Source of the DNA: Cyanidioschyzon merolae
Lineage: Eukaryota
Direction: 5' to 3' (one strand)
Assembly: GCA_000091205.1 (NCBI GenBank)
Contig: AP006498.2
Length of the DNA: 64,000 nt
How positions within the stretch are numbered: the stretch's first letter is position 1; each line of letters opens with the position of its first letter. The position numbers and the translations under genes were made by a program. Shown piece by piece: positions 16,976-62,533 of this stretch. The notes below the pieces were generated by a model that ran no database searches, had not been told where the DNA came from, and saw only the letters and a program-made list of their open reading frames with translations.

Positions 16976-17629
16976 TCAGTGGTACGCTTCTCTTGAGCTG
17001 ACGCTCCCTGCACCCACGTTTGGTGCCTCGAAGGCGGCATTCGGCGTCTCGGCGCTGGCCTCATGTTTCTGTTCGTTCATGATACCGAGCACCGTGCCCA
17101 TGGTCGCAACGCTCTGCTGCAGCGCGTTCAAAGTCGCTCGAAGTTCGGCGAGTTGCTCTTGCTGCTCGAGCCGTTGGCTGCTGATGGACTCCAGTTCGGC
17201 ACGTCGCTCGCAGATCTCCAACTCCAACTCGGAACAATTTGGTAGTCGCTCGATCTCGACACACAAAGCCCGCAGCTCTCGCTCGCTAGCTAACTGCGAC
17301 TCAGCAACGCTGAGCGCCTTCTTTTCCTCCGCGTATTGTTCCCGAAGTTGCTTCACTTGCGCCTCCAGTGTAGGCAGTGCTAGGCAACGAAGGTTGTCCT
17401 CGTCAGTGGCGAGCGCCTGCGCGGCTCTGGCGAAATGCTCGGCCGACTGCTCGAGCGCAGCCAGCGATCGAGCCAAAGCGTCCGGGGAGGTTTCCACTCC
17501 GCGTCCTGCTTGCGTGAGTACCAGCACTTGACCTGCTGACTGTAGGAACTCGTCGTAGCGCTGTTCAAGTCGTGCAGCGATTGCTGTTTCACAGTCACCG
17601 CTGTCGCTAACGGTGTACATTAGTGGCAT
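16976..17629 (-). CDS. hypothetical coiled-coil protein
   Basis: ORF rich in heptad-like 'LEQ...AEL...LRE' segments. The track start at 17698 lies inside the conserved Fanzor tail. The first in-frame ATGs are at 17629 and 17620, so the start is uncertain. No family recognised. Confidence 0.3.
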   Translation of the reverse strand: MPLMYTVSDSGDCETAIAARLEQRYDEFLQSAGQVLVLTQAGRGVETSPDALARSLAALEQSAEHFARAAQALATDEDNLRCLALPTLEAQVKQLREQYAEEKKALSVAESQLASERELRALCVEIERLPNCSELELEICERRAELESISSQRLEQQEQLAELRATLNALQQSVATMGTVLGIMNEQKHEASAETPNAAFEAPNVGAGSVSSREAYH

Positions 17630-17747
17630 GTGGCCCGCCCTAGACGAGAGGTCTCCAACTGACGTGCAGACGCGTCCCCGTCTTTTTCGACCGGCCACCC
17701 ACTACTGCTTCTAACTTTTTCTTATATAGTTCGACTTTAAGAGGTTG

Positions 17748-19716
17748 TCAAACAAAGTTCTCTCTTGTCAACTCTGGAGCTCTCGTCTCCAGCACCGCAC
17801 ATCTCCTGATATTGATGGCGGCATCGAAGTCACGATTCACGAATTCCATACGTTTCTTGCCATCGTTGGTTGTACTGACCAATGCGAGTAGTCCACGAAC
17901 TTTCGCCATCCTTTCCATTTGCTCCTCCGTAAGCGGTCCATACTTTATTATATCTTCAGGGCTCCTCTGGCACTTTTCCATCTCCACTCTCTGAAGTGTA
18001 CAACCCAGCTCGTGGTGTGTATACGATGTTCGAAACTCATCTACAGGTATCGTAACGAAACGCCGTGCACACTCCTTGTGCGCTCTCGTCGTTGGAGCTG
18101 GTGTACACCCTTTTTGGGTCTTCCAGCGCCCTGCTCCGTATGCTACGACGAGCCTCTGACTTTCATCCTCCTTCAGGGCGTTCAACTGATTGAAAAAGTT
18201 CGCGAACGCCCGCTGTTTCCCACAGTATAGATTCATACGCAGACGAGCCCACCGAGGCTTTGTATACTCCTCCCACAGCGCCTCCCAATGAGCAACGCGA
18301 ACTTTCATGAATTTCAGAAAAGCTTGAAAGTCCGCTCCTCGGCTCGTCACCTCGCTCATAGCTTCCAAGTGGTCCTTTATTCCTGCATTCCATGTCTTAA
18401 TTTTCTTCCTCGCATTCATGATTCCCGATTCTCGATAGTCTCTTGCTGTCGAGAACCTCAGAAGACGCATGTGTTTCTGACGCAAGTTACCGTCAGTACC
18501 GTCGTCCGCAAGCTTGGATACAGCGATGGATATGATATTTGTGTTTCCGGGGTCCGCGCCAACGACAAAGTCGTTTTCCTGCACTTTCTGCGTCGCAGCA
18601 TCCGCTTGTTTGTTTTCTTCATGTTTCGCCGAGCGCGAAGCCGAGGGCGGAACTGGACGATCTTTCCTCAACCGCAGATAGTGTACACACATGGGTATTC
18701 CATCGCTTTCAATCAACCCAGTGAATTCCTTTTTCTTGCTGACTTTGAGCCCTTTGAAATTGAAGATATTCTTCCAGTACGTCTCGCGGGTTTCGGCGGT
18801 GATCTCTGTGCTCCTTACATCGAACTCGGGACTGGTCTCAGTCATGATGCCGTAAAGGACGCCGGAGTCGATAGTCACAAAATGTGACTTGATGTTGCCC
18901 AACGGAACCACGTTGAAGCGCTCGCCCATTAGGAACGCCTTCCGTCTCTCCCATTCTTCATTTTTTTCCTCACTCAGCTTCATCTCCGCTTTGCGATCGA
19001 GCTCTCGGTCCAAAAACACAAAATACCGTAGGACGAGACGATCGTATCTTTCCTTATCTTTTTTCAACTCTGATATCTTGTCTGTCGGATTCGCCAGCCC
19101 CGAAACTGCACGGTGCTCTTGCATAACCGCACGGATTACAGAAGCTGCATTCGTGATCTCTTTTGACGCCTTCTTGTCGACGAATCCGATCCCATCTACA
19201 CGCCGGCGATTGTTCGTGATGCCATTGATAATCGCCCATATCCCTTTGGGAGAGATGCCCGGGATAGAGTGCAAATGCGGCGCGTATCATGAAACGTTCG
19301 AGGTTCGTTGTCAAACGATTCTCCAGATTCGTGAGTCACTTCATCGCCCCATAGTCGTAAATATCCCGGTCATCCCTGTACTGGGTACCCTCGAAGCGGA
19401 ATTCCGCGAAGTTTTCGTGGAGGGCATGCACCCGCTCATTTTCCATCCGCGCATCCTTTGTACCAAGCATCAGCTGACGAATAAACTTCTTATCGAAAAA
19501 CTCGTCCGGAATCTCGACCGTTTCCATGTGCGTCACGTCGCGATACATCTCCCGTACCAAATGCATCAGTCCTGACGACGCCTTTACAATACTCTTGGAG
19601 TACGAGTCGACACGGTTTCTGATAGCGTCTCGCAACTTTTCCCTGTAGGGATCCTTGATATGCTTAAGGACACCGGCTTTCACCACCATCTCGTCGTACA
19701 TTCGTCTTTCTTGCAT
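17748..19716 (-). pseudogene. Fanzor1-like TnpB-family RuvC nuclease, disrupted (~655 codons)
   Basis: The three track ORFs 19336..19716, 19054..19314 and 17748..19274 are pieces of one gene. Motifs: '[12 protein letters not shown]' (RuvC-I), 'CTPAPTTRAHKEC...HHELGCTLQRVEMEKC' (zinc finger) and 'KKRMEFVNRDFDAAINIRR' (RuvC-III). An in-frame TGA at 19333-19335 falls where copy B has Tyr. Near 19272 a 1-bp insertion ('tatcccggg' vs copy B 'tgcccggg') shifts the frame. Confidence 0.75.
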
Positions 19717-19733
19717 CGTTCGACGTAGAGCCT

Positions 19734-19743
19734 CCCCCCCCCC
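19734..19743. repeat. poly(C) tract (10 nt on + strand; poly(G) immediately 5' of the copy-A Fanzor start codon on the - strand)
   Basis: Reads 'cctccccccccccttt'. Confidence 0.8.
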
Positions 19744-20703
19744 TTTGGTCCTTCTTCTTTTCCTTTTCTTCTGGACTCGTCACTGTTTTTTGTTTTTTCT
19801 GGCAGCCGGCGACACTGGGCCTCCAGGATCGTGGACTTGCTTTTTCATCACTTTCCTTTTCTTGTTTGTTTTTGAAAAACAACGCTCTTTGATCCCTTCT
19901 GTTATACACAGCAAAAAATCAATCGAGCATTTTTCCTTGAGGTTTGAAACACAAATGAACTGAAAACTGTACTTTGCTACGACCTCAACGCAAACACAAC
20001 TTTTACAGCTGAACAAGACGCTTCTGATCGCGATTGCGTCTCCCTTCAACGGCGACGGGCGCGTCGTGTCTAATGCCTGCCAGATAAGGATGTGCGCGTA
20101 TCGGGCGCACTCTATAGAACAAAGAACAGATACTGACCATTAAATCGCCACGAGATAACGATTTCTTTCCCCTCTACGATAAACGTTGAGACGGGGAAAA
20201 CTGTCGGTACTTTCGAAAGTTTACCTTCTAGACGCAAGGTCCCGCGGATTGCACGAGTCTCCCAGGCTCGTGCTTCACGCTCCGCCACTGGCAGGTGCTT
20301 TCGTGACATCTGAGCAACTCGTCCGTAACGCACTCCACTCTGGGACTTGGAACGGGTAGCCGCCGTCTGGGCGTTGCCCATGATGCAGTGGACTCCTGGT
20401 ATATCGCGTTGCGCTGCCGCAGGCACTAGATCAATCTGCGCAGCTTGCAGACTCCTAGAACGACTATGAGCCACGACTCCGTTTCAGGTGAAGCGTTCCT
20501 CGGTCCGACGCCCTCAGAGGTATGGCAAAGCCGTTCAGTCTCCGTGATGCATCGGCATCAGCGATAGAACCGCAATTGCGGGTGCTCAAAGCAGGTAATC
20601 GGCGCTCGATAGAGCATAAGAATCGACCATTACATCCGAAAAGGTTTATGGGTCATGTAGCTTGAGGGTAAGTGCATCATGATGGATGCTTTCCCGAAAC
20701 CCA

Positions 20704-20728
20704 ACATCCATCCATCCATCCATCCATT
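20704..20728. repeat. (CATC)n microsatellite
   Basis: Reads 'catccatccatccatccatccat'. Confidence 0.85.
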
Positions 20729-21050
20729 CTGCAATCTAGGATCCATGGTCCACGTAAACGTTTTGTATAAAAAATTCTCATCAGCAGCAGCGACGGCGCT
20801 AGGCCCCAGCCGTCATCCTGGCGCCCGCTGAAGGCTCGCTGCGAAGCCTCGGCTGCATCGCAAGCCCAGGTGTCGTTCCGTTGTCAACCGAAAACACTTG
20901 TAGATCGAGTTGGTGCTGAACAACGTGGGCTCTGTGACTCCTCCCTAAACTCTTGCTCGCTTCTGATTGGGAAAAGGTTTGCAGCCTCAAACAGTGTGTG
21001 GAGAACACTAGAACTTAACCAACACCACACCGCCCACGACACAGTTACCC

Positions 21051-25453: not shown

Positions 25454-25662
25454 GACGCGCAGAACAACGCGGACTTGGAAGCGAAGTCGCTGATGCCCAC
25501 TGCACTACCCGTACGAGTCCAGGGGTCTAAGCTGTGACTGTCCGGCGTCCAGCACGAGCAGCGAAAATCGCGAAAGCGTTTTGGCTTGACGCTGGGCGCT
25601 GTGTCCAGTGTGACTGGATCCGCCAACGTTGACGACGCGTGCGCCGCACGTGGCATTCCTGG

Positions 25663-26130
25663 AGCGGGCGTATGCGAACCCTGAACCTACGGAAGCGAGT
25701 TGCTCTCAGAGCGGGCGTGTGCGAACCCTGAACCTACGGAGGCGAGTTGCTCTCAGAGCGGGCGTGTGCGAACCCTGAACCTACGGAGGCGAGTTGCTCT
25801 CAGAGCGGGCGTATGCGAACCCTGAACCTACGGAAGCGAGTTGCTCTCAGAGCGGGCGTATGCGAACCCTGAACCTACGGAGGCGAGTTGCTCTCAGAGC
25901 GGGCGTGTGCGAACCCTGAACCTACGGAGGCGAGTTGCTCTCAGAGCGGGCGTGTGCGAACCCTGAACCTACGGAGGCGAGTTGCTCTCAGAGCGGGCGT
26001 ATGCGAACCCTGAACCTACGGAAGCGAGTTGCTCTCAGAGCGGGCGTATGCGAACCCTGAACCTACGGAGGCGAGTTGCTCTCAGAGCGGGCGTATGCGA
26101 ACCCTGAACTTACGGAAGCGAGTTGCTCCC
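25663..26130. repeat. 47-bp minisatellite, ~10 tandem copies
   Basis: The unit 'gagcgggcgt(a/g)tgcgaaccctgaacctacgga(a/g)gcgagttgctctca' repeats head-to-tail with a/g variants at two positions. It lies ~200 bp upstream of the 25453 start of the lipase-like gene. Confidence 0.9.
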
Positions 26131-43595: not shown

Positions 43596-43925
43596 CAGAC
43601 AATCAGAATGTCCGTCTCGTTCTATAAACTACTGGTATGAACGTCTCTGCGAGTCGCTTGTCGTCAGGATGTCCGTCTCTTTCCATAAAATACAGGTATG
43701 GCAAGTTTCTACTTGCCGCTTGTCGTCAGAATGTCCGTCTCTTTCCATAAAATACAGGTATGGCAAGTTTCTACTTGCCGCTTGTCGTCAGAATGTCCGT
43801 CTCTTTCCATAAAATACAGGTATGGCAAGTTTCTACTTGCCGCTTGTCGTCAGAATGTCCGTCTCTTTCCATAAAATACAGGTATGGCAAGTTTCTACTT
43901 GCCGCTTGTCGTCAGAATGTCCGTT
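43596..43925. repeat. 62-bp tandem repeat, ~5 copies
   Basis: The unit is 'cgcttgtcgtcagaatgtccgtctctttccataaaatacaggtatggcaagtttctacttgc'. The first copy is degenerate and four are near-perfect. Track ORFs 43516/43760/43822 are artefacts of the repeat. Confidence 0.9.
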
Positions 43926-45789: not shown

Positions 45790-46310
45790 GGCGTACAAGC
45801 AACGTCCCAAGTTGATCCATCCATCTATGTATTTATACTCAGCAAAACGGATATCTTTCTAGGACCATAGAGTGTGTATAGAAACCTACTGACAGACGCC
45901 CCGTAGCATCAATGGACCCATGGGCTGCAATCAGCTTAAGTTTATACCTGCACACTTCGTGCATCAAAGGCTGCGTCGCAAAATTCACTCGTGTCTGCTC
46001 CGCGAGTCTCGTCTTCAGCACCGCTTTCCGTCTGACATTGATGGCGGTGTAAAAGTCCCAGTTCACGAATTCCATGCGTTTATCGCCTCTGGTGAAACGG
46101 ACGTATGCAAGGATGCCTCGAAATCATACCCTCCGTGCCACTAGTCTCGTGGATCTCTCCTCTTCTTCCTCACCTACTCTTCTTCGCACGACGGTCGGCG
46201 AGAAAAGGATCTTTTTCGTTATTTTTCCGGGAGCCGGCGACACCGGGCCTCCAGTATCCTCGATTTCCATGTACATAACTTTTCCTTGATTCTTTTATTT
46301 CTTCAAATAA
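45790..46310 (-). mobile_element. internally deleted Fanzor-family element (5' conserved block fused to the RuvC-III coding remnant plus 3' tail)
   Basis: ORF 45839..46075(-) reads '...RGILAYVRFTRGDKRMEFVNWDFYTAINVRR', matching the copy-A C-terminus 'RGLLALVSTTNDGKKRMEFVNRDFDAAINIRR'. The DNA below it is homologous to the copy A/B tail ('ggtccattgatgctacggggcgtctgtcagtagg' vs 'ggtccaaaaaaggggaggcgtctgcacgtcagttgg'). Positions 46141-46310 match the copy-A 5' block ('gggagccggcgacaccgggcctccagtatcc' vs 'ggcagccggcgacactgggcctccaggatcg'). Confidence 0.6.
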
Positions 46311-46389
46311 ATGCAGTTCTTTGTGCCCGTAGATAAGGAACTTCCCGGAGGGAGTGGGACTTGCGGAAGAGAGCCGAAACGTGTCCCGG

Positions 46390-50133: not shown

Positions 50134-50255
50134 GCAGCGGCTGGAATGCGCACCTAATCGGAGAACGCTGGCCCAAGTAAACGTTTTGTCAATGAAAAAA
50201 AAGCTGGAATGCGCACCTAATCGGAGAACGCTGGCCCAAGTAAACGTTTTGTCAA
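50096..50255. repeat. (GCGT)n microsatellite followed by a ~62-bp tandem duplication (2.3 copies)
   Basis: 'acgtgcgtgcgtgcgtgcgtgcgtgcgtgcgtgcgg' is followed by 'gctggaatgcgcacctaatcggagaacgctggcccaagtaaacgttttgtcaatgaaaaaaaa' twice plus a partial third copy. It lies 150-300 bp upstream of the ACBP start. Confidence 0.85.
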
Positions 50256-51014
50256 TGAAAAAAAAAGCTGGAATGCGCAGGCGCTCTGCATTCGCCAAAT
50301 GCGATCGTGCGGTGCCTGCTTCCGCTGCTGCTTCTCGCGCATTCGGGCCCTGGGCAGTGCCTCGTACATTCGTCGATACTGTACCACACGAGTCGATCCG
50401 GCTGCATCAGAGAGCAGCAGCTTTAGCGGGATACGAGTTTTGGTCGAAGGTAGGTCGTTTAGATTCAAGGAGCTCATGATGTGGAGTTTTGAAGTGAATA
50501 GCGCCCGCGACATCACCCGAGTCGATGCAATCTGCTTTCGCTGATGCGGGAGACGGAGTATTTCCGATCACAAAACGTTTACGTTGACCATGTATCCCAG
50601 ATTGCGGAGTGGTTACTGGTTTTCGGGAAAGCGTTCATTATAACGCAACCTACCTTCAAGTTCTATGGCCTGTTCTCAGATATTCTGGTCGTTTTGTTCG
50701 TTCTATTATGCGCCGAGTTCCTGTCTTACTGCACCCGCCGTGGCGCTTATGCCGTTGAGGCAGATGCTTCACGGAGCTGAATAGCATTGCCATATCACTA
50801 GCGGCTTCGGTTCGAGGCATGATTCATTCGACATGGAGTCGGGCTATATGATTATCCTGGGAGCCTGCAAGCTGCGCAAACAGGCCGACAGTCTGCGACA
50901 GCGTGAAGCGATAAGCTGGGAGTCCATTGCGACCAGGGCGACGCCCAGATGTAGCGTTCCAGTCCCAGTTCCAGAATGAACTGCATTGCGGGCGAGTTGC
51001 TTGGATCTCCCTAC

Positions 51015-53195
51015 AGCTTTAGCTACTGAGGGGTGAATGAAGCACGAGCCTAGGGGACATTCTTGGACATATCAAGGATCCGTACGAGCAGGAATTTCGA
51101 GAGGCCATCAGAAACCGTTTCGCGTCCCACTCCATGAGTATTAAAAAGGCTTCTTCAGAACTAATGCATATGGTGAAGGAGATTTATCGCGACATGACTG
51201 ACATCATAACAGTGGAGGTTCCGGAAGAATTTTGGAACAGGAACTTTATTCGTCACCTGATGCCTGGCACATGGGAAACGTCAAAGAGAGATGAACTCGT
51301 GCGTGCGTTCCACGAGGGTCGCGCCGAATTCCGCTTCAAGGGTACTCGATACAGGGGCGATAGGGATATTTACGACTATGGGGCTATGAAGTATCTCACG
51401 AACCTGAAGAACCATTTGACAACCAACCTCGAACGTTTCATAATAAGAGCCGTATTTGCGCTCTGCCCGGGCATCTCTCGCAAAGGGATATGGGCGATTA
51501 TCAATGACATCACGAACGATCGCAAGCATGAAGATGGGGTCGAATTCGTCGACAAGAAGGAGTCAAACGAGAGCACGAATGAAGCTTCTGTGATCCGTGC
51601 GGTTGTACAAGAGCACCGTGCAGTCGTGGGGCTGGCGAATCCGCCAGAAAAGATATCAGAGTTGAAAAAAGATAAGGAAAGATACGATCGCCTCGTCCTG
51701 CGCTATTTCCTGTTTTTGGACCGAGAACTCGAACGCAAGGCGGAGATGAAACTGAGTGAGGAAAGCAATGAAGAGTGGGAGAGACAGAAGGCTTTCCTAG
51801 TGGGTAAGCGCTTCAATGGCGTTCTGTTGTGCAACATAAAGTCACATTTCGTGAGTATCGACTCCGGAGTCCTCTAAGGCATCATGAAGGAGATCTGTCC
51901 GGAGTTCGATGTCAGCAGGGAGGAATTCACCGGCGAAACCCGTCCGACGTACTGGAAGAGTATCTTCGATTTCAAACGTCTCAAAGTGAGCAGGCAAAAG
52001 TTGTTCACTGGGATAATCGAAACCGATGGAGTAGCCATGTCTGTAAACTATCGGCTGTTGAAGAAAGATCGTCCAGTTCCGCCCTCGGCTTCGCCAGTGA
52101 CGAAGGATGAAGAAAAGGAGGAGGCCGGTCCTGCGACACAGGATGTGCAGGATAACGACCTTGTCGTTGGCGCGGCGAAGGATGAAGATGAGGAGGAGGC
52201 GGGTCCTGCGACGCACAAAGTGCAAGATAACGACTTTGCCGTTGGCGCGGACCCCGGAAACACAAATATCATCACCATGGCAGTACCCAAGCGTGTGGAA
52301 GATGGCGCTGACGGCAACTTACGTCAGAAAGACATGCGTTTGTTGAGATTCTCGAGAGCGAGACACTATCGAGAATCGGGAATCATGAATGCGAGGAAGA
52401 AAATCGAGACTTGGAATGCTGGAATAAAGGACCACTTGGAAGCTATGAGCGAGGTGACGAGCCGAGGAGCGGGCTTTCAAGCTTTCCGGAAATTTATGAA
52501 AGTTCGCGTTGCTCACTGGGATGCGCTGTGGGAAGAATATACAAAGCCTCGGTGGGCTCGTCTGCGTATGAATCTATACTGTGGGAAGCAGCGGGCGTTC
52601 GCGAACTTTTTCAATCAGTTGAGCGCCCTGAAGGAGGATGAAAGTCAGAGGCTCGTCGTAGCATACGGAGCAGGGCGCTGGAAGACCCAAAAAGGGTGTA
52701 CGCCAGCTCCAACTACAAGAACGTACAAGGAGTGTGCACGGCGTTTCGTTACGATACCTGTAGATGAGTTTCGAACATCGTATACACACCACGAGCTGGG
52801 TTGTACACTTCAGAGAGTGGAGATGGAAAAGTGCCAGAGGAGCCCTGAGGAAATCGCAAAGTACGCACCGCTGACGGAGAAGCAAATGGAAAGGATGGCG
52901 AAAGGTCGACGACTACTTGCATTAGTAAGTACAACCAATGATAGCAAGAAACGTATGGAGTTCGTGAACCGAAACTTTAACGCCGCTATCAATATAAGGA
53001 GATGTGTGGCGCTGTAGAAAAGACCCTCCAGAGTTGAGAGAATTTCGTGGGACAACCTCTCAAAGTGGAACTATATGAGAAAAAGTTGAGAGAAGTAGTA
53101 GGTGGCCGGTCCAAAAAAGGGGAGGCGTCTGCACGTCAGTTGGCGACTTCGTGTCTAGGGCGCATTCGCCGCCACTACTGTACACCGCTGGCGAC
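51015..53195 (+). mobile_element. Fanzor/TnpB-like element copy B (5'-altered decayed ORF plus conserved 3' non-coding tail)
   Basis: Homologous to copy A at the protein level and along the 3' tail through ~53195. Copy B lacks the 5' 'ccggcgacac' block seen in copy A and the deleted copy. Confidence 0.7.
51037..53017 (+). pseudogene. Fanzor1-like TnpB-family RuvC nuclease, disrupted (copy B)
   Basis: An in-frame TAA at 51878-51880 falls where copy A has Tyr (TAC). A ~14-nt indel near the N-terminus sits between ATG 51037 and 'catatcaaggatcc'. A 75-bp in-frame tandem duplication (52103-52252) gives '[25 protein letters not shown]|[25 protein letters not shown]'. RuvC-III reads 'NRNFNAAINIRR' (Asp to Asn) and the stop comes earlier ('CVAL*'). 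Confidence 0.75.
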
Positions 53196-53326
53196 TGCTT
53201 TCGACTTTTGAAAGGCGTTCGCTGTCGCTGCCATGTGCTTCCGCAAAACCGCCTCCTCTGAACGGCCTCGACATCCGCTTTCGCAATAAAAGGCTCCGCG
53301 GGGTTTCCAATTGCTAAAACACGAGC

Positions 53327-54376
53327 TTAAAGACGGCGGTGTCTTTGAAAGATAAACACCGACTTGTCCCCGAGATCGTCCCGGATATTCTGCACAAATT
53401 TCCGTAAGGAAAATACCGTCATGAAAATGGCGACTACTGTGCTCAACGCGAGTCCCGAGTTTCCGGACGCGGTGCTCCACCAACCCAAGAAGTGTCCACC
53501 AACGAGTACCGGGACCAGCATGGCAAGCACCGACGCTTCTGCGCGTCGGAAACAGAACGCTTCCTTGAAGAACACGCCTGTCAGCGCCGCCGCCACCCAG
53601 CCGGCTCCCGTTAGAACGCCAACTGGATGCTGTATCAACCAGTGCACATACAAGTCGTGCGTGTTTGTCCATACCATCCACTCACTCAGTGCCGAGGTGA
53701 GTATTCCAAAGCCCAGCAAATACTGCAGCGCTCGATGAAGCGGCTTCAAGTAGATGTGGATGTAGTGTAGTGCGATACCCAGCCCGGCGACGCCACTCCA
53801 GTAGAGCGCCTCCACGAACGCAGTCGACCTGAATTGAGCCAAGTCCAGTGGGAGCTCTCCGTTCCCACTCGTTAACCAGGCCGCTCCAACAGCTGTCACA
53901 GCAGCTAAGGTAACCAACGCCATGCCCGCACGGTAAGCGCGCACCTCGCGAACGTCGGCCTCGGTTAGGAACCACTCACCAAAGGCGCCGGCGTACGGAC
54001 CACCGAGAACTTTATCTTCGTTTTGGCTGGACTTGAACGAGTTTGGTGAGAGCGACAGGCGCCAGCAGCGCTCCATACCACCATTACAACGCCGGCGACC
54101 TTGTCGTCGCTGCTGAACGCACCTGCTGTTCCGTGCTCTGAGCAAGGCGCGCATCTCAAATTGACGAGACGCTTGCCGACAGCACGTCTTGCTCCCATGT
54201 GTGCTAGGTAATAAAACCGTTCGAGAAAAAGACGAGTAAACAAAGTTGAAAGTCATGACGAACGGACCGTCGACGAGAGCGAAAAGCGCGTCTCGAAACC
54301 CAAGGAGATTATCGTTCCAGTGTTTCCGCCACTGCACGGCGGCCGATGACGACTTCGAGCTGCATACGCGGCACAA
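53327..54376 (-). CDS. hypothetical multi-pass membrane protein
   Basis: Several hydrophobic helices ('GMALVTLAAVTAVGAAWL', 'WSGVAGLGIALHYIHIYL', 'LLGFGILTSALSEWMVW', 'GVLTGAGWVAAALTGVFF', 'VLAMLVPVLVGGHFLGWW', 'LALSTVVAIFMTVFSL'). The true start is uncertain ('MRALLRARNS' or 'MERCW' are plausible internal starts). No family recognised. Confidence 0.35.
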   Translation of the reverse strand: MCRVCSSKSSSAAVQWRKHWNDNLLGFRDALFALVDGPFVMTFNFVYSSFSRTVLLPSTHGSKTCCRQASRQFEMRALLRARNSRCVQQRRQGRRRCNGGMERCWRLSLSPNSFKSSQNEDKVLGGPYAGAFGEWFLTEADVREVRAYRAGMALVTLAAVTAVGAAWLTSGNGELPLDLAQFRSTAFVEALYWSGVAGLGIALHYIHIYLKPLHRALQYLLGFGILTSALSEWMVWTNTHDLYVHWLIQHPVGVLTGAGWVAAALTGVFFKEAFCFRRAEASVLAMLVPVLVGGHFLGWWSTASGNSGLALSTVVAIFMTVFSLRKFVQNIRDDLGDKSVFIFQRHRRL

Positions 54377-54519: not shown

Positions 54520-55250
54520 TGTGAGTAAACCAGAAAATGTTCCACGGATACTGGGGGTAGATTCATACCCACCAATAGAAACATCCGAGCATTTATGGAC
54601 TGGCCGCCTGCTTTCGGCATCAGCTTCTCCTTATAAAAGCATCAGAGGCTGCATCATGATTTTAGATCGCCTCAGGTCTTCAAGTCTGTTCTTCAGTGCC
54701 GCAAATCGTCTGATATCTATGCTCGCGTTACAGTCTCGTTTCACAAACTCTAGGCGTTTATTGCCACTGGTTGAACTCATGATTGCAAGCATTGCTAGCA
54801 CTGGTGCCGTCAACCACTCTACAGTTTCGTCTGTCGCTCATCTTCTCCTTTTCCCATTTCTTCGTTATTTGCTCTTCTTCGCTCCATGTTCGGCGAGAAG
54901 AGCTATTTGCCCGACGACACAATGATGAGCCTGTCGTGGCACTGAGGTCGCGAGTTCTAGCAATCCTTGCATATCTGCGTTCAACCAGAGGCAATAAACG
55001 CATGAATTCAGTGAACCGAGGCGTCGACGCCAGCATCAATATCAGACGAGTTGCAGTGCTAAAGACGAGCCCCCAGGAGCTGACGCGAGCCAACGCTGTC
55101 CGGCAACCTCTGATACTCCAGGTATTCCGGGAGAAACGGAAGCCGATAGCATTCGACCGCTCCATAAATGCCACGAGACGTCTCCAAGTGGATATACCAT
55201 GCATCCCCATGATTGGGGAATGTTTTTCGTTTTATCGTTATTGCCCGCGG
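54520..55250. repeat. ~730-bp near-palindrome (inverted repeat) built from two Fanzor 3' ends, arms ~54520-54850 (-) and ~54910-55250 (+), centred ~54885
   Basis: The reverse complement of the left arm aligns with the right arm at ~80% identity. Each arm encodes a RuvC-III remnant: 'NKRLEFVKRDCNASIDIRRFAAL' on the minus strand and 'NKRMNSVNRGVDASINIRRVAVLKTSPQELTRAN' on the plus strand. Each continues into sequence homologous to the copy A/B non-coding tail ('ggcaacctctgatactccagg' vs 'ggacaacctctcaaagtggaac'). The centre is itself palindromic: 'gctcttcttcgctccatgttcggcgagaagagc'. Confidence 0.75.
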
Positions 55251-55372
55251 CGGCTTCAGAGGCGTTGTCGCTCCGCAGGGTTTCCAGCCAAATAGCTTCA
55301 ACGCACTACGCTGGCACGTTTTCGGCACTACCGCCACCAGCTTGTCTGTGTGTTGGTGTATTTATCTGATCC

Positions 55373-58300
55373 ATGCGTCTTTCCGAGAGGCCGTGGTCAC
55401 CGGTGACGCCTTTCTTGGGCGCCTTTCAGTGTTTGCGGCGATCAGTTGATCCTGAAGCTGCAAGCTCCCGGAAGACGCCTGTCGACGGGGTACGGACGAC
55501 GACTCGAAGTCACTCGGTAACCGCTGTCGGAATAGAACGCGCTAGCTCGCTCGTGTCAAACGTTACTGAGGATGAGCTTCTTGATCAGTCGATACGCCCA
55601 GAACTTGTGCGACTCTTATCGAAAGGCGAGGGTGCACTCAAGTCCGAAAAGGAACCAGCAGCGCCCGTTACGGTACGTCTGCAGCTGAAACGCTGGCGAC
55701 GACGAGAGGCGTCCTCGGTAGAACACTGGAATCCAGCGGTTACGTGCCATGTAAGGCAAGGTCCCGACTGGGAGACCGCCTACGGTTCATGCCCAGCATC
55801 TGTCTACCTTGATGAGTTGGACTCGCTCTGGAGTATTTGTCAACGAAGTGCGCTGGATTCATCGAACACGGAGCAACCACAGCGCGTTGCATTAGCCGAT
55901 CGGTTGTGGTCTCTGTCGCTTCAACTACAAAGCATCGTGCATACTGGACGAATCAACTGGGCCAAACTTGCAGGTGCATGCGAGAGCGGCTGCCTGAATG
56001 CTTCCGGGCCTCGTCACGATACCGTTTCGGACTTGGGCGGTTCATCGACGACGCGTCTCATGACGGATGACGGACAAAACCTCCTGAATCATTCGTCCGA
56101 ATCTCCTTCATGTTACCAAGCGCCCGCTCAGGAGACGCATCATGACGATTCACCATCGTGGGTGTCGTCCAAGACGAGTCAAGGCAGTGCGGAGCTACCA
56201 TCGGTGCCGCTTTCACCTCAGATACGCCCGAAAGCAGCATTCGTATCCGCTGATATGGAACTAGTGGCTATTGCCGATGATCAGGGGCGGGCGGCATCGT
56301 ACGCTGACGGTGAGCATGCCACAGCAGTGTGTGCAAAGCTCGTTTCATGGCCCAGCGACGACGACGACGACGACGACGACTCGCAAGTATGGGATGCCTC
56401 TGCAGACGAGACGATGCGACGCTCACGAAGAAAGCACGTGCTCCGGATCCCGAAAGCAAAGCAGGAATACCTCGTGTCGGTACCTGCGTCATGTCCACAC
56501 TGGGGCATCTGGTGGCTGCCTGGAACCGCAATCCTCGAACCGCTCCTGGAGATACTGGAGAGCCCTACCGCCTCGATCGCCGTTGTTACCGCGACGCTGG
56601 AAACACTAGAGCGCCTCCTGCGGCGAGGAGCTGCTCGTGGCCTTGTGCTCGATGAACAGCGGGATGTTGTTGTCACAGTGGCGACAAGTAGCGTAGCAAC
56701 CGACGCAGGTTGCACCCAGGGATCAGCGACTGCCTCTATAGAAAGCTTTCGCGTACTTGGCCGCCGCTGGCTTGACCTCTACGCCCGGGAACGGGTGCTC
56801 GCGAGACTCGTGGTGGTTGCCCTCACGCGCTGGTATCAGCAGCAAGTTCGCGTAGCCGGCGCCGAGTCCGCTCTACTTTGCTTTCTTCATTTGGTGCAGA
56901 CCATTGTGGACGCTGGCGTTCCCAGTCTCGATGGAGACGCTGTCGCGTCTTCTACCGCTCTGAATAGAGACACCGGTGCCGCCTCGAGTTGCGGAGCATT
57001 GCCAGTCAGCGCGCTCGAGTCGCTCTGCCTGATGTGTCTGCACTGTGCCGCGGGACGTCATCGACTTCGTTCACCGCTGTTACGACGTCGCGGGGAAGAG
57101 GTGCTGGTGAAGATCAGTGAACTGCTCTTCCGTCGTGCGTCTGGAGCAGCAATTCGCAAGTGGATGCTTCGGCTGATTGCAGCGATGATAGACCCCACGG
57201 TTGCGGATGCTGCGCTTGTCATTTGTGGTGAAGACGCAGCGTCGATCACCGCGGAATCGTCATCTCCGGGGGAAACGGTGAACGATGATCACGTTGCAAA
57301 CCCCGTTTCTGAACTCCGTCGCATCCTCTGGGAGGACAAGTCCACTGGACGCGCTGCCACGGAATGGCTCGGCCTCGGCCTGCTGAACAGTTCCGTGGAT
57401 GCCAACCGTCGACGAAAAGAGACACAAGTACTGGGATTACGCATGCTGCATCCAGTTCTGGATGCCCTGATCCAGGCTCAGACGCCCATCTCCGAGCAGG
57501 TGCTGGGCGTGGATGCAACGCTTCGAGCGCTGGTGCTGGGTCCACTCAGCCTGGCCTTGTTGCGCTGTTTAGCCCAGAGCGATGACGCCTTGTGCGCAGA
57601 GGTACATGCGTTAGCGTTTCCACTCGCGCTCAAGCTCGTGGAATGCCTGGGACCGGAGGCGCTCACCTTTTTTCATACCCTGTTGACTGTGATCCTGCCG
57701 AGCGCCCTGGAGGGTGTCCGCGAACCCGCGATGCGCTCGAACGGCTCCGTTGCTCAAGAGCTGTGTTTCCCGCTGCTGCGTCAGCTGCTGTCGCGTCTGG
57801 ATCTACTCTGGAGCGCCTACCTTGCCTATGACTGCAGCCTGCAGTTTGCCGACGCTCTCGGGCCGCTGTTCCAGGTCATCGCGAACGCATCGCACCCGTT
57901 TGCGGTACCGCTCATGGCTACGCTGCTGGAGAGCCTCCAGCAACGCGACTGGGGTCCACGGCCGCTGCGGCTAAAGCCCTGCACTGCCGCGGACTGGGAC
58001 ACTTTGTACCAGCAGCGAGCACAGAAGCAGCGACGTCAACAAGTGCTGGATACATTGGCGGGAAACGGGGCCTCCCAGCGAGACTGGAATGCCACTGACT
58101 TGTGGAAGAGTCTCCAGAAAAGTCAGCTGCTCGGCGAGGGCACTCCACCAGAGCCAGCAGCAACACCATCTGCAGCGTCTTTGCTGGCGCAGTTTCTCCG
58201 CGCTACACCCGAACTTGACAAAGTCCTCATTGGCCAAGTGATCGGCAGTCCAGACCCGTTCAGTCAACAAGTGTTGGCTGCTTACGCGCAGACCTTTGAC

Positions 58301-61300
58301 CTGCACCAGCTTCCCATTGATGCAGCGCTGCGTCTCTTTCTCGAGTCGTTCCGCTTGCCAGGAGAGAGTCAGAAAATCGATCGCATCATGCAGGCATTTG
58401 CCACCCATTACTTTAACCAGAATCAGGGACCATCGTTGCCGCTGGCTTCAGCAGACGCTGCTCATGTACTCAGTTTCGCGATGATTATGTTGAATACGGA
58501 TCAACATCATGGACAGGTGAAGCAGCGCATGACTCTCGCAGATTTTACGCACAACAATCGAGGTATCAATGACGGTGACGATCTCCCTGCGGCCTATTTG
58601 CAGGGCATCTATGAGCGCATTCGTCAACAGGAGATACGACTCAGCGATGATCACGGTGTTGCTGCGCTCGACCGTGTCCACTGGGAGGCACTGCTGCGGA
58701 ACCAGCAGCATGCCCTGCAGGTAGGCAGCGGGCATGCCGAGCAGCTCTGGACGTCCCCAAGACGTGCTGCAGCGTGTTTGCTCGGTTTCATCTGGCCTAC
58801 GCTGCTCGAGGCGTTTGGATCACGACTCGTGCTGTTACTGTTTCCACCGGGAGTCGCCAGTGCAGAGGCCGGTGCCACGACTGCACATTCGTCGTCGACG
58901 ACGACGTCGACGCTGTCCAGCGCCCTGACAGAGCGACCCCAGTCCGCGGAGCACCGGAGCATGCGGCGTGCTGGGCGTTTGCTTAGCCAGGGCACCAGCA
59001 GTGGTAGCGGTAGCGGCTCTGAGCATCCTGCCGAGCCGCTTCTATTACCGGTGCTTGGTGCCGCTGACCCGTCATGGGATCAGGTCGAAGAGGACGCTTT
59101 GCCGTCGGGCGATGAGTCACGTGTCCAGTTGCAGGAACGCTGGCTCACACGTTGGGATCACTGGAGACGTACCATTGTTGAGGATCAAGGCCCGTGGCTC
59201 GTTCGCTATCGAACCCGAGCTGCGCTCCGCGAGGCCGTTCTCCGTCTCTTTTGTCGACTGGGCTGGACTGCGCATCTGCTGGCGATGCCTACGATTCTTG
59301 GACAGGTGCTCGAGCTTCTGACGCTGCTCACGGGTGTCGTCGATGATCGTTGGCCAGAGCCGACTCCGGAAACCGCAAGCCACCGCTGCTCGCTACCAGA
59401 AGCTCCATGTCCGTGTATCCAAGCACCTGAACAAGATGAAGCGGTCTGGGTGTTTCTAAGTCACTGGAAACGCTCCCGCCGGAAGACGCGCTCTGCTACC
59501 TGGCTCGGACGACATCGACCAGCACAGCAGGTTCTGGTTGCAGTCCTCGGGCTAGCAGCTCGGTGTCTACCCGGTTTGGACGCCGCCGCCTGGTGTGCGT
59601 TAACTGCGCTCCAGTTACGGCTGGTGGAGATGCGCCTCACGAGTCCGCTGCTCATCGAACCCGAATTCGTGAACTGGCTGCCGGCACTCTGGGCGCCCGA
59701 CGGGACCCTGTTGCTGCCGGGACGCTTTGCACCGCCCTGGGCGTCTATGCTGCGGGATCTGGCTCTTCGAGAGTGCCCTGAGCTGCAGTTGCTGCGGCCG
59801 TCAGCGGCGGACGTAGCGTCGCCTCAGCCGGAGCCAACCAGTCTGTCGGGGTGCGTGGCGGCCGGTACACCCCAGTCACCACAGCAGCGACACATGCGAA
59901 AGACTCGTTCCGCTGAGGAACGCCTCGAGAGGCGCACCAAACACACTGCTGCCGATGCCGACACCCAGAGCCTCATCGCCTCCAGAGGCATCGGAGGCGA
60001 TGACGGTGATGATGATGAGGATCATGCAACTGCGTCTGCTGCACAGCATACCGTGGATGCCCCTAGACTGGGTGACAGGATGCAGGTGCTACCCCAGGAG
60101 CTCGTGGATATGGCCGACGATTCCTCCGAGGCCAACAGTTACGGTGCGAGCGGAAGCGGGCTCTTGGCTACGCTCCTCAGCGGCATCGGGTTCGGATTCA
60201 GCGGCACCGAGACGAGTACCAGCACCAGTGCAGACTCCGCTGCGGCCAAAGGGCGTCCTCGACACGACAAGACGCAGACCGGCGGCGACAATGACCTTGA
60301 GCGAGCGCGTTCTTGGCGAGCTGTCGAGCGACTCATCGCGGATCCCGAGCCAGACGAGTTGTCGGACCTGGATGCGTATCGCAGTCCAACGGAATGTGCA
60401 CCTTCTACTCGAAACGCAGATGCCTCGCTTTCGCAGCCTGCAACGACGACGACAACCACCGCTGCCGATACAGGCGCTGGGAAGACAACAGCCCCTGAAA
60501 CGGAGCCGTGGCGGCGTCTGGTCGTCGAGGACTCGTGGGACCTCGTGCGAGCGGTTTTCCCGCGGTATCTACGGAAACCTGATATGGACGCGGAACGAAG
60601 GGCGCTTACCCGCCGCTGCCTAGTCTATGCCCTGCAGCAAGCGAACCTCTTTGACCCGGCTCGTTGGATGACGGCTTCCGCCGGACTGCTGGAGGCTCTC
60701 GGCCATGCAGCGCGTTGGGCGTACCAGCTGCCGATGCCCGCGGCAACACGGCCTGTTGCACTGGAAACCCTGCACCCAGACTCGGGGAATCAGCAGCACG
60801 AGCAGCACCAGCAACACCAGCAGAAACAGCAGCAGCCTGAGAGCGCTCTCACATCGACCTGGACTGTGTCAGCATGTCGCTGGTTTCCGCGTAGAGCGCT
60901 GTGGCGGTACGCACACCTCAGCGCCGCAGATACCGCAACCTGGCGCAAAGCCTGGCTCCTGGAACATGTATCACTGGTTGTGCTGAGTGATGTGGGACGA
61001 ATGCTTGCGCACTGGGGCGTGCTCCAGGAGCTCGTGCACATGGAAATGGCCACTGCCGTCGATGACCCGACGCTTTCCCTAGAATGTGCGGTGTTTGCTT
61101 TGGTGCGTTTGGTGCTGCGTGTGCTTGCCGTAGCGGAGCGCAACTTGTCCGATAGAGTCTGTTGGACAATTCTGGCGGCTGTCTACAAGAATCTGCGTCT
61201 GCTGATGCCGTTGGCGACCTCCGCCTTCGACGCGCTTTGTTTACCGGTGTTGGTTGCACTGGGAACGATACTGGAGCGGTATCCACGCTGGATACCCCCT

Positions 61301-62533
61301 GAGGACGGCTGGGAAACGCTGTGTCTTGTATTGGAGCGTGCTCTCCGACAGTCAGAGTCGACGGTGCAGGTAGCTTGGCAGGTGCTCATGCTTCTGCTTG
61401 CGCGGCTAGATCAGCAAATGGAGCATGGAACGCTCCACGAGACCGAGGAGTTTTCGCTCCAATGTCTCGAATTGCTTCTCACGGCGATCGAGCAGCCGTA
61501 TCGTCCAGCAGCTACTACTGCTGCATCCACTGGCACAAATGCCGTCTCTCCATATGGATGCTTTCAGCGCTTGTTTGCACAGCGTGCGGCTCTGTTGACT
61601 GGAGCCGAGCGTTGCTTACCGCTCCTCGGACGTCTCGCACGTGTCGTCGCTACCCACCGGTCCATATCGGTACGCTACGAAGCCCTGGTAACACTGGAAC
61701 GCATCCTGATGGAGCCGCTCTGGCAGAATATCTCGGAATCGTCGCGCGTAGAATTGTTTACCGGTGTGTTGCTGCCGCTCGCTGAAGCGCTGCAATGGGA
61801 GGTGCTCTCCAACGAGAGCACGTTGCACACAGATCCGGTGCTCCGAGAGCGCCTTCTCATCCGCTTGGTCATGGTGCTGAACCGGTTCTGGCTTTTGCAG
61901 CACATGCTGTTGCAGCAAGTACCAGAAACGACCATCAACGACTGGTGGATGCGCCTAGTGCGCATCCTAGGTGACCTGTACGCTGTTGCGGTACGGCGTT
62001 CGCGAGCACAGCGCCTCGCTGGCGTCTCCGACGGCCGCTGGGCATCGGCACCGGTGCCTGTAGCGGCCTCGGAGACGCTCGCGGAGCACATCCATGAGAC
62101 GCTCAAGAATACGCTCCTGGTTATGGTAACGGGTGGTTTTCTGGATCCAACTCTGGAGCTTGCTGGTGCAGAAACGACCGCTGTCACTGAGAATGCGTGC
62201 AGTACAGCTGCTCGACGTTGGTCGGAGACGTTCACGCTTCTGGCTCCGCTGTTTCCCGCGCTCGAGGAGGACCTGTTGGGACTTTTGGCGCAAGCACCGA
62301 TGCATCGCTCTCGCGCTGTTCAGCGAGACACGGACGCCGCCCATACGCTTGCCGAACAAAAAATCAGTCCGACACCCGTGGATGTTCCACAGCGACCGGA
62401 TGATGTCACGACGCATACACTGACCGAGACGAGCGCTCAGACAACGGACGCCAGCACGTCCACCTATGAATCGGCAGCGCCGAGTGCGGTGCTCTGCACC
62501 GACGAGCACTCCTGTACCGAACTGGACAAGTAA
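55373..62533 (+). CDS. large Sec7-domain ARF guanine-nucleotide exchange factor (BIG/GBF1-like)
   Basis: 2386-aa uninterrupted ORF. The Sec7 domain reads 'FRLPGESQKIDRIMQAFATHYFNQNQGP...VLSFAMIMLNTDQHHGQVKQRMTLADFTHNNRGINDGDDLPAAYLQGIYERIRQQEI' (canonical FRLPGE-QKIDRIME-F and IMLNTD blocks). Long helical regions lie on both sides, as in the DCB/HUS/HDS regions of large ARF-GEFs. Poly-Asp and (QH)n tracts are present. Confidence 0.85.
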   Translation: MRLSERPWSPVTPFLGAFQCLRRSVDPEAASSRKTPVDGVRTTTRSHSVTAVGIERASSLVSNVTEDELLDQSIRPELVRLLSKGEGALKSEKEPAAPVTVRLQLKRWRRREASSVEHWNPAVTCHVRQGPDWETAYGSCPASVYLDELDSLWSICQRSALDSSNTEQPQRVALADRLWSLSLQLQSIVHTGRINWAKLAGACESGCLNASGPRHDTVSDLGGSSTTRLMTDDGQNLLNHSSESPSCYQAPAQETHHDDSPSWVSSKTSQGSAELPSVPLSPQIRPKAAFVSADMELVAIADDQGRAASYADGEHATAVCAKLVSWPSDDDDDDDDSQVWDASADETMRRSRRKHVLRIPKAKQEYLVSVPASCPHWGIWWLPGTAILEPLLEILESPTASIAVVTATLETLERLLRRGAARGLVLDEQRDVVVTVATSSVATDAGCTQGSATASIESFRVLGRRWLDLYARERVLARLVVVALTRWYQQQVRVAGAESALLCFLHLVQTIVDAGVPSLDGDAVASSTALNRDTGAASSCGALPVSALESLCLMCLHCAAGRHRLRSPLLRRRGEEVLVKISELLFRRASGAAIRKWMLRLIAAMIDPTVADAALVICGEDAASITAESSSPGETVNDDHVANPVSELRRILWEDKSTGRAATEWLGLGLLNSSVDANRRRKETQVLGLRMLHPVLDALIQAQTPISEQVLGVDATLRALVLGPLSLALLRCLAQSDDALCAEVHALAFPLALKLVECLGPEALTFFHTLLTVILPSALEGVREPAMRSNGSVAQELCFPLLRQLLSRLDLLWSAYLAYDCSLQFADALGPLFQVIANASHPFAVPLMATLLESLQQRDWGPRPLRLKPCTAADWDTLYQQRAQKQRRQQVLDTLAGNGASQRDWNATDLWKSLQKSQLLGEGTPPEPAATPSAASLLAQFLRATPELDKVLIGQVIGSPDPFSQQVLAAYAQTFDLHQLPIDAALRLFLESFRLPGESQKIDRIMQAFATHYFNQNQGPSLPLASADAAHVLSFAMIMLNTDQHHGQVKQRMTLADFTHNNRGINDGDDLPAAYLQGIYERIRQQEIRLSDDHGVAALDRVHWEALLRNQQHALQVGSGHAEQLWTSPRRAAACLLGFIWPTLLEAFGSRLVLLLFPPGVASAEAGATTAHSSSTTTSTLSSALTERPQSAEHRSMRRAGRLLSQGTSSGSGSGSEHPAEPLLLPVLGAADPSWDQVEEDALPSGDESRVQLQERWLTRWDHWRRTIVEDQGPWLVRYRTRAALREAVLRLFCRLGWTAHLLAMPTILGQVLELLTLLTGVVDDRWPEPTPETASHRCSLPEAPCPCIQAPEQDEAVWVFLSHWKRSRRKTRSATWLGRHRPAQQVLVAVLGLAARCLPGLDAAAWCALTALQLRLVEMRLTSPLLIEPEFVNWLPALWAPDGTLLLPGRFAPPWASMLRDLALRECPELQLLRPSAADVASPQPEPTSLSGCVAAGTPQSPQQRHMRKTRSAEERLERRTKHTAADADTQSLIASRGIGGDDGDDDEDHATASAAQHTVDAPRLGDRMQVLPQELVDMADDSSEANSYGASGSGLLATLLSGIGFGFSGTETSTSTSADSAAAKGRPRHDKTQTGGDNDLERARSWRAVERLIADPEPDELSDLDAYRSPTECAPSTRNADASLSQPATTTTTTAADTGAGKTTAPETEPWRRLVVEDSWDLVRAVFPRYLRKPDMDAERRALTRRCLVYALQQANLFDPARWMTASAGLLEALGHAARWAYQLPMPAATRPVALETLHPDSGNQQHEQHQQHQQKQQQPESALTSTWTVSACRWFPRRALWRYAHLSAADTATWRKAWLLEHVSLVVLSDVGRMLAHWGVLQELVHMEMATAVDDPTLSLECAVFALVRLVLRVLAVAERNLSDRVCWTILAAVYKNLRLLMPLATSAFDALCLPVLVALGTILERYPRWIPPEDGWETLCLVLERALRQSESTVQVAWQVLMLLLARLDQQMEHGTLHETEEFSLQCLELLLTAIEQPYRPAATTAASTGTNAVSPYGCFQRLFAQRAALLTGAERCLPLLGRLARVVATHRSISVRYEALVTLERILMEPLWQNISESSRVELFTGVLLPLAEALQWEVLSNESTLHTDPVLRERLLIRLVMVLNRFWLLQHMLLQQVPETTINDWWMRLVRILGDLYAVAVRRSRAQRLAGVSDGRWASAPVPVAASETLAEHIHETLKNTLLVMVTGGFLDPTLELAGAETTAVTENACSTAARRWSETFTLLAPLFPALEEDLLGLLAQAPMHRSRAVQRDTDAAHTLAEQKISPTPVDVPQRPDDVTTHTLTETSAQTTDASTSTYESAAPSAVLCTDEHSCTELDK

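Follow-up and report, generated by a model that had tools for sequence, protein, structure and literature searches.

An inverted pair of Fanzor1 copies between two divergent genes

The window analyzed here is a 64,000-nt stretch of Cyanidioschyzon merolae DNA (GenBank assembly GCA_000091205.1, contig AP006498.2), and our subject is an inverted repeat within it that lies between two divergent genes, one for a DUF2301 membrane protein (53327-54256, minus strand) and one for a Sec7-domain ARF-GEF (55373-62533, plus strand). The region holds two degenerate, non-coding, 5′-truncated elements placed head-to-head, both of them copies of a miniature form derived from the Fanzor1 transposon CMe-1. The left element (L, 54526-54903, minus strand) is a copy of an internal-deletion derivative that we refer to as ‘C-type’, and the right element (R, 54904-55234, plus strand) is a copy of the same derivative truncated ~100 nt further in than L. 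Together they occupy most of the ~1.1-kb intergenic region, with the first ATG of the DUF2301 gene 270 nt from the 3′ end of L and the Sec7 ATG 139 nt from the 3′ end of R. An earlier note on this DNA, made from the sequence alone, was right that the 3′ ends point outward and that the structure lies between a membrane-protein gene and the Sec7 gene, but the start that it gave for the former, 54376, is a TTG; the first ATG is at 54256, and the public call is at ~54076.

The extended inverted symmetry that the note proposed to look for by dot-plot is real, as indicated by blastn of the region against itself, whose match spans 54526-55234 (709 bp, 722 columns, E = 5e-60), and by a gapped local alignment of the left arm with the reverse complement of the right arm that scores 96.5, far above 200 shuffles (11.6 ± 1.8, maximum 24.5). 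An ungapped repeat finder returned a single 42-nt inverted pair (79%) as its sole output, so gapped alignment is needed to see the structure. The arms had been put at ~80% identity as reverse complements; we measured 67% (216/324) in the pairwise alignment and 61–63% over the ungapped columns of multiple alignments, with 12 nt as the longest exact complementary run between them. At 61–67% identity, and with ~100 nt beside the junction that in family coordinates are unique to L, the arms lack the near identity and short spacer of a long palindrome, and the view of the locus as a long, fragile palindrome is not supported.

The note had also asked whether an assembly chimera could be excluded. 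Five contigs from different samples, four of them Joint Genome Institute (JGI) metagenome contigs (L001-L004) and one a Logan contig from a run on a geothermal spring (L109), follow the window collinearly across the two arms and the gene on either side, at 99.3–99.7% identity and with 0 gaps. An artefactual structure, for instance one in which the assembly fused two copies of a repeat, is a general risk for repeats with nothing more specific to recommend it here, and we give it next to no credence because these five independent assemblies run gap-free across the structure and because arms that differ at about one-third of positions are not collapsible repeats.

By direct mapping to the CMe-1A consensus, the left arm (54811-54577, minus strand) corresponds to consensus 2840-3082 and the right arm (54937-55189, plus strand) to 2833-3088. 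The full 3′ segment of L (54526-~54836, minus strand) covers consensus ~2835-3133 and is followed inward by a GA-rich piece from the N-terminal region of the open reading frame (ORF; 54837-54870, minus strand), and the 3′ segment of R, on the plus strand within 54904-55234, covers consensus 2833-~3133. Both segments carry the RuvC-III remnants that had been described, which translation bears out: the Fanzor C-terminal coding remnant reads GNKRLEFVKRDCNASIDIRR in L and GNKRMNSVNRGVDASINIRR in R, and in the latter the catalytic ‘RD’ has become ‘RG’. The arms also differ by a ~22-nt segment, TTTGCCCGAC..ACAATG, which is kept in R and absent from L. Beyond the RuvC-III remnant, the outer part of each arm had been read as an omegaRNA tail. 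The consensus Fanzor1 ORF, however, stops only at position 3110, 37 codons past the stop of a further copy in the window (copy A, below), and the right arm translates collinearly with it up to ‘...RRLQV’ (‘...RRLHV’ in the consensus), so this tail is mostly former coding sequence, consisting of the last ~37 consensus codons and then ~25 nt past the stop.

The parent family CMe-1 and its internal-deletion derivative

CMe-1A is a Fanzor1 transposon family of C. merolae with a 3,169-bp consensus and ~150 copies, each roughly 80% identical to that consensus, without terminal inverted repeats and with undeterminable target-site duplications (TSDs); the CMe-1 protein is encoded by a single exon and has 734 residues (Bao & Jurka 2013, Mob DNA 4:12, PMC3627910). 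We took the consensus DNA and protein from the supplementary files of that paper. Besides the arms, the window contains three further copies of the arm sequence, two of which are the 3′ ends of long ORFs. Copy A (17599-20766, minus strand) is a full-length CMe-1A element (consensus 6-3151, 85% DNA identity) whose Fanzor1 ORF (17748-19274, minus strand) is open for the last 508 codons only. Copy B (50565-53217, plus strand) is a CMe-1A element made of consensus 1-499 and 1081-3169 (500-1080 deleted), and its ORF (51134-53017, plus strand) contains an in-frame stop and a change of ‘NRDFN’ to ‘NRNFN’. Both Fanzor genes of the window are defective, and their proteins are 84% (A) and 80% (B) identical to the CMe-1 consensus protein. 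Copy C (45844-46330, minus strand) is a single copy ~175 nt upstream of a sterol methyltransferase gene, consists of consensus 867-~1025 and a GA-rich continuation joined to 2833-~3132, and belongs to the same subgroup as L and R.

A profile of 91 diverse relatives matched solved Fanzor1 structures from Parasitella (PpFz1, 9cf0, E = 4.8e-25), Spizellomyces (SpuFz1, 8gkh, 7.9e-18) and Guillardia (GtFz1, 9cer, 2.2e-13), in alignments that cover the ‘DPG’, ‘DEFRT’ and ‘NRD..A..NI’ motifs. Within the 91-sequence alignment D241 (DPG), E413 (VDEFRT) and R481 are invariant and D482 (NRD.NAA.NI) is conserved in at least 90%, giving a split RuvC with its catalytic D...E...D in TnpB order and a C-terminal ‘RD.NAA.NI’ motif. 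Together with the consensus mapping, this profile match upholds the earlier description of the arms as inverted Fanzor 3′ ends, and judged by sequence they derive from the 3′ end of Fanzor1 CMe-1. The CMe-1 relatives are numerous (2,928 representative clusters at 50% identity in an exhaustive profile search). The nuclease gave a weak NCBIfam guided_TnpB match at its C-terminus (E = 0.016) and a Cas12f1-like_TNB match (E = 0.23) in a library scan, local scans of Pfam, NCBIfam and PHROGs returned no usable match, and neither single-sequence searches of solved structures nor those with a shallow 14-sequence profile found one. An AlphaFold model from the 14-sequence alignment had a mean predicted local distance difference test score (pLDDT) of 40 and was unusable, the C4 zinc finger of the motif of Bao & Jurka is degenerate in the CMe-1 family, and exact-sequence look-ups of the DUF2301, Sec7 and Fanzor ORFs of the window found none on record. 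We also observed an annotation gap, in that the public relatives of the copy A ORF (P0001-P0266) are tagged solely as PF26935 (DUF8286) or as ‘hypothetical protein’; proteins known publicly only as DUF8286 are nevertheless tied firmly to solved Fanzor1 structures by the profile search.

The arms had been taken for plain 3′ fragments. They are instead copies of a multi-copy derivative that keeps part of the ORF start, in which consensus ~789/869-1068 is joined to the last ~300 bp (~2835-3133). A profile of the C, L and R peptides led to short public ORFs and through them to their contigs, which gave three more independent loci of the derivative (L098, L099-L104 and L105/106), all of them single copies. 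The deletion junction, ‘...ACGAGACTGTAGTGGCAC.GA-GGGCACGAGTTCTAGCAATCCTTGCA...’, is common to these three loci, copy C, L and R, and the 3′ segment of C begins at the same consensus position as in both arms. At its 3′ end the derivative is kept to near consensus 3133, without the terminal GCCACTACTGTAC stem partner, and at its 5′ end homology starts from ~789-869 and not from position 1; the termini of the family are undefined in the literature. Taken as a whole, members of the family end at one fixed 3′ point but differ in where their 5′ ends lie (consensus ~789, ~867-869, ~2737, the hairpin and ‘seg2’, the last two described below), a feature that Fanzor1 elements of Chlamydomonas also have (Bao & Jurka, PMC3627910). 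Two solo 3′ fragments (L107:142-487 and L092:12060-12406) start at consensus ~2737-2739, a hint that there is another recurrent 5′ boundary or another class of derivative.

Copies C, L and R have 42–49 derived sites in common when they are set against copies A and B and the CMe-1A consensus, and for this reason we consider them a diverged subgroup and not just decayed CMe-1A; the arms are 55–58% identical to the CMe-1A consensus. The three, which also have motifs such as ‘CCAT..ATGC’ and ‘CTGAT.C’ in common, lie within 9.4 kb of each other, and the other members come from unrelated loci. This closeness may reflect local transposition or copying.

Compared with what has been published for CMe-1A, the arms and copies A, B and C all map to its consensus, and the window copies are old in the same way, being ~80% identical to the consensus or less, with no terminal inverted repeats and with undeterminable TSDs. 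The arms differ in that they belong to a diverged subgroup and come from a deletion derivative absent from that paper (PMC3627910), whose own short relative, TE-N2_CMe, corresponds to the 5′ 635 bp of CMe-1A, unlike the derivative in the window. The derivative also resembles miniature inverted-repeat transposable elements (MITEs) and the palindrome-associated transposable elements (PATEs) of IS200/IS605 in being short, multi-copy, non-coding and near genes and in keeping terminal parts of its parent, but it has neither terminal inverted repeats nor a recognizable TSD, and its 5′ end is not the parent terminus at position 1 but a point shortly before the ORF. The novelty is modest, namely a CMe-1 deletion derivative and one decayed inverted pair of it, and the derivative may be in Repbase already. 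As it consists of the ORF start and the last ~300 bp, the derivative is a candidate for asking which cis sequences Fanzor1 movement needs.

The substitutions in the derivative point to neutral decay. Differences among its copies amount to 0.31/0.32/0.37 per site at the three codon positions, and private changes are distributed 22/29/22 (p = 0.51), whereas the control pair of copies A and B shows the third-position excess (13/11/26) expected under coding constraint. The changes are spread almost evenly over codon positions, and we regard the arms as old and neutrally decaying. One member (L098) encodes a 112-codon in-frame fusion of the Fanzor N-terminus with the C-terminal remnant (P0270), and the idea that mini-ORFs of this type are under selection was ruled out by the codon-position test. 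An uninterrupted ORF of 170 codons (97 from its ATG) likewise runs through R in the old Fanzor frame (54783-55295, plus strand) and is called as protein P0268 in public collections; given the neutral evolution that the test indicates, P0268 and P0270 are probably chance survivals.

Junction, age and origin of the pair

At the center of the pair the earlier note had marked a short palindrome at 54871-54902, which does exist and is one base longer (54871-54903), but it is not made by the junction of the arms. All single-copy members of the family, copy C included, contain a short imperfect hairpin, CTCTTCTCGC - 10 nt - GCGAAGAAGAGC, that originates from an ORF stretch encoding ‘ILFSPT.ERRR’, and the family alignment identifies 54871-54903 (minus strand) as the ancestral hairpin of L, with its left stem at 54893-54903, its 10-nt loop at 54883-54892 and its right stem at 54871-54882 in the sense of the gene. 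The central 33 bp match the hairpins of four single-copy members at 25–29 of 33 positions when read in the sense of L and at 16–18 of 33 in the sense of R; because the match is far better in the L sense, the central palindrome is L's own hairpin and not a product of the junction.

From 54904 onward (TATTTGCCCGACGACACAATGA...) the sequence has its homologue in a segment that L098, L099 and L105 possess, located deeper in the element by ~100 nt, and R matches all three there with TATTTGCCCGAC, in a segment that has been lost from L and C. The 11 bp at 54893-54903 are both the complement of the left stem of L and homologous to the start of a segment of the R lineage, ‘seg2’ (GACGAGAAAAGG in L099). 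As these 11 bp fit both lineages in the family alignment, the L/R junction is a microhomology within an intrinsic inverted repeat, the mark of joining primed by microhomology at such a repeat. A fold-back event would likewise place the junction at a short inverted repeat that already existed. The arms are asymmetric in family coordinates, with R starting inside seg2, ~100 nt further in. Two other accounts of the center were dropped. In the first, the palindrome would have been centered on the loop of the family hairpin with R as a mirror copy from the stem, which does not agree with the start of R inside seg2. In the second, a deletion common to C and L would have separated L from R, but its boundaries differ in the two (~33 vs ~22 nt) and a second indel in the low-complexity GA-rich region groups the copies conflictingly.

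Both arms have diverged to the same extent. In a relative-rate test, 36 differences from the family majority are found in L only and 31 in R only (p = 0.63), and in total L has diverged from that majority by 24.9% and R by 24.2%, with a Jukes-Cantor distance between the arms of ~0.5 substitutions per site. The arms are equally old, which is compatible with their being sisters and is no proof of it.

The note had offered a fold-back duplication and two separate insertions as possible origins; both are possible. We put about even odds on an ancient episode of fold-back copying at the short inverted repeat that the element itself contains. We infer that this would have been a single event at, or soon after, the insertion of one copy, in which a DNA end at the left stem of the L hairpin (CTCTTCTCGC) would fold back onto similar GA-rich sequence ~100 nt further in and prime copying of the remainder of the element in reverse orientation, as a fold-back or template-switch inverted duplication. 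The product would be two identical arms around a unique ~100-nt spacer, and later point mutations and small deletions, including the ~22-nt loss in L, would have brought arm identity down to ~65%. This model predicts both the junction that we observed and the equal ages of the arms, and we favor it over two insertions mainly because exact abutment at an intrinsic inverted repeat is unlikely to come from independent events.

Several observations weigh against a fold-back origin. L and R are not each other's closest relatives (identity 0.63 for L-R, 0.69 for R-L099 and 0.65 for L-L099), and private changes marking them as sister arms are not seen: they have 3 exclusive derived sites in common, which is background (the highest pairs have 5–8), and when quartets are rooted on the consensus, A or B, the grouping of L with R scores lowest (9–10, against 11–13 for C with L and 13–18 for C with R). 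A fold-back would consequently have to predate any private mutations of the inserted copy. The ~22-nt stretch that is present in R and not in L requires a later deletion in L under the same model, and indel boundaries in the GA-rich center are uncertain, as the aligned sequences are 60–70% identical. None of the four other loci of the derivative is arranged head-to-head (0/4), and no empty or intermediate orthologous site was found; the available sequences pass from strains of the same species (98–99.7%) directly to relatives of the flanking gene at ~40% protein identity.

Two insertions in the same burst are the main rival, a possible but less probable origin. With a 5′-truncated L already in place, R would have entered this short intergenic region in the opposite orientation, with its 5′ end joined to the L hairpin by microhomology-mediated end joining and the intervening DNA lost at joining. 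The star-like relationship of L, R and C, with no excess of derived sites common to L and R, agrees with this, as do the greater closeness of R to L099 than to L, the different 5′ truncation points (R keeps a segment lost in L) and the constant 3′ and variable 5′ ends of the family; the elements also show a preference for sites directly upstream of genes, and a divergent gene pair provides two of these. Set against these points, the second 5′ junction must land exactly on the end of the first copy, inside an intrinsic inverted repeat, the equal divergence of the arms fits one event and needs coincident timing for two, and no other locus contains two copies. Nested insertion of R into the hairpin of L was ruled out by the outer flanks, which have no sequence from the 5′ part of the element.

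Fold-back (hairpin-primed) inverted duplications at short inverted repeats beside a DNA break are known in Tetrahymena, yeast and tumor amplicons. The pair in the window is like them in having a unique spacer between its inverted arms and a microhomologous junction placed in a short inverted repeat that was there before, but its arms are ~35% diverged and asymmetric near the center, and the predicted sisterhood of the arms is not demonstrable. As a dated natural inverted pair with its junction in its own hairpin, it bears on how such pairs form and how they survive by divergence. Its weight for cell biology is little, as the parent family is already published and the structure is a decayed relic.

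Guide-RNA, hairpin and regulatory readings of the pair

Several measurements bear on whether the arms now act on the neighboring genes. In one reading they would be cis-regulatory or structural and would affect both genes, as a bidirectional promoter, as 5′ untranslated regions (UTRs), as an extended RNA hairpin or as a cruciform in the DNA. They fill 709 bp of the ~1.1 kb between the two divergent start codons, the structure is retained in 5/5 sampled populations, and a transcript of the whole region, or a single strand of it, would form one long imperfect hairpin, far more stable than shuffles (z = −10.9 as RNA and −10.4 as DNA). The longest perfect duplex in it is, however, 12 nt, which is insufficient for a cruciform or for long perfect double-stranded RNA, and because both genes are transcribed outward a transcript across both arms would not be expected. 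The density of single-nucleotide polymorphisms (SNPs) among strains is 0.85% in the arms, between the 0.43% and 1.27% of the coding sequence on either side, which shows no special conservation of the arms, and C. merolae is reported to lack RNA interference machinery. We therefore consider a present cis-regulatory role improbable; there is no sign of regulation of the neighboring genes or of fragility, and the effect on both genes, or production of hairpin RNA, that the earlier note had raised finds no support.

The same note had considered a derivative selected to keep two outward-facing omegaRNA modules. Taken further, the pair would be a functional dual module with putative guide RNAs, their guides taken from the flanks beside the DUF2301 and Sec7 promoters, and the derivative would have been retained since its 3′ ~300 bp would encode the omegaRNA scaffold of Fanzor. 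The guide RNA of characterized Fanzors is encoded in the 3′ part of the transposon, directly against its right end (Jiang et al. 2023, PMC10530073), and the arms, at consensus ~2835-3133 of 3,169, keep exactly this region, which is an agreement in position only. Chlamydomonas offers a precedent in 20 extra stand-alone copies of the Fanzor guide-RNA region (PMC10530073). No conserved RNA structure was detected, however. RNAalifold on 14 copies of the 3′ region gave a consensus energy of −2.8 kcal/mol, to which covariation contributed −0.2. Folded singly, neither arm was more stable than its shuffles (z = −1.7 and −0.4), the 3′ region of the consensus had z = −2.1, and Rfam has no match anywhere in the window. 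These negatives are weak, because changes gained after insertion make up most of the variation and a Fanzor1 scaffold can be minimal, with little constraint on the omegaRNA beyond stem-loop 1 (PMC11423790). The neutral substitution pattern, the ~25% decay of each arm and the defects in both Fanzor genes of the window speak against a working module. We judge it very unlikely, and selection to keep two omegaRNA modules finds no support, given neutral substitutions, absent covariation, folding at the level of shuffles and the lack of an Rfam match.

The orientation of the elements has also been weighed on this question. The 3′ end of the element faces the next start codon in 12/13 informative loci, at −30 to 461 nt (median ~200), as judged from window positions 17599, 45844, 54526 and 55234 and from L080, L081, L087, L091, L092, L099, L105 and L107; the exception is copy B, which is tail-to-tail with the DUF2301 gene. 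Such a pattern would suit modules that read out toward genes. We downgraded it as a rule, because intergenic regions between divergent genes, in which it is automatic, hold most of the loci, and the informative tandem cases are 2 (L099 and L092b), both of which conform.

Chlamydomonas stand-alone copies of the Fanzor RNA (fRNA) region and the 3′-overabundant Fanzor1 elements CRe-1 to CRe-3 are close counterparts, being Fanzor1 3′-end copies without a nuclease gene whose 3′ ends are constant and whose 5′ ends vary or are truncated (PMC10530073; PMC3627910). They are reported to be highly conserved and are linked to Helitron2 ends, whereas the window copies are 60–70% identical and in neutral decay, with no conserved RNA structure detected. 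A broader and slightly more far-fetched idea, to which we attach very little weight, is that mini CMe-1 derivatives in general would be stand-alone putative guide-RNA genes upstream of host genes, transcribed outward into the promoter or 5′ UTR, with a Fanzor1 acting in trans or a nuclease-dead descendant guided to the 5′ region of the gene. Were this so, the inverted pair would be a double module serving both genes of the divergent pair, and the system would be a eukaryotic counterpart of bacterial TnpB-derived RNA-guided transcription factors. The pair as it stands today is a relic, too imperfect for a cruciform and with nothing pointing to a guide RNA.

A few further observations concern CMe-1 elsewhere in the window and in public sequences. 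A 217-codon host ORF (16976-17629, minus strand, MPLMYTVSDSGD...) has its first ATG inside the 3′ terminal sequence of copy A (17599-17640), where ATGCCACTAATGTACACCG corresponds to GCCGCCACTACTGTACACCG of the consensus, and a host gene, or an ORF artefact, may thus take its start from the end of copy A. Fragments that match just the 5′ few hundred bp of CMe-1A at 58–85% identity occur at 3341-3848 in the window and in L099:1-125, L105:7-184 and L092:4822-5091; they are probably copies of TE-N2_CMe, a short element identical to the 5′ 635 bp of CMe-1A (Bao & Jurka, PMC3627910). An identical 449-residue Fanzor ORF (P0012) is followed by an IF-2 gene in one set of metagenome contigs, and in a second set the gene after it is a DAO/FAD-oxidoreductase gene (L081-L086 vs L087-L090), which reflects either recent CMe-1 mobility or chimeric assemblies at a repeat.

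Tandem repeats are found in the window at 25662-26128 (47 nt × 9.9 copies, 97% matching), at 43603-43924 (62 nt × 5.2) and at 50140-50279 (63 nt × 2.2 copies), the last of these lying ~290 nt upstream of where copy B starts. Within the ORF of copy B itself 75 nt are duplicated (52101-52250), which doubles a peptide.

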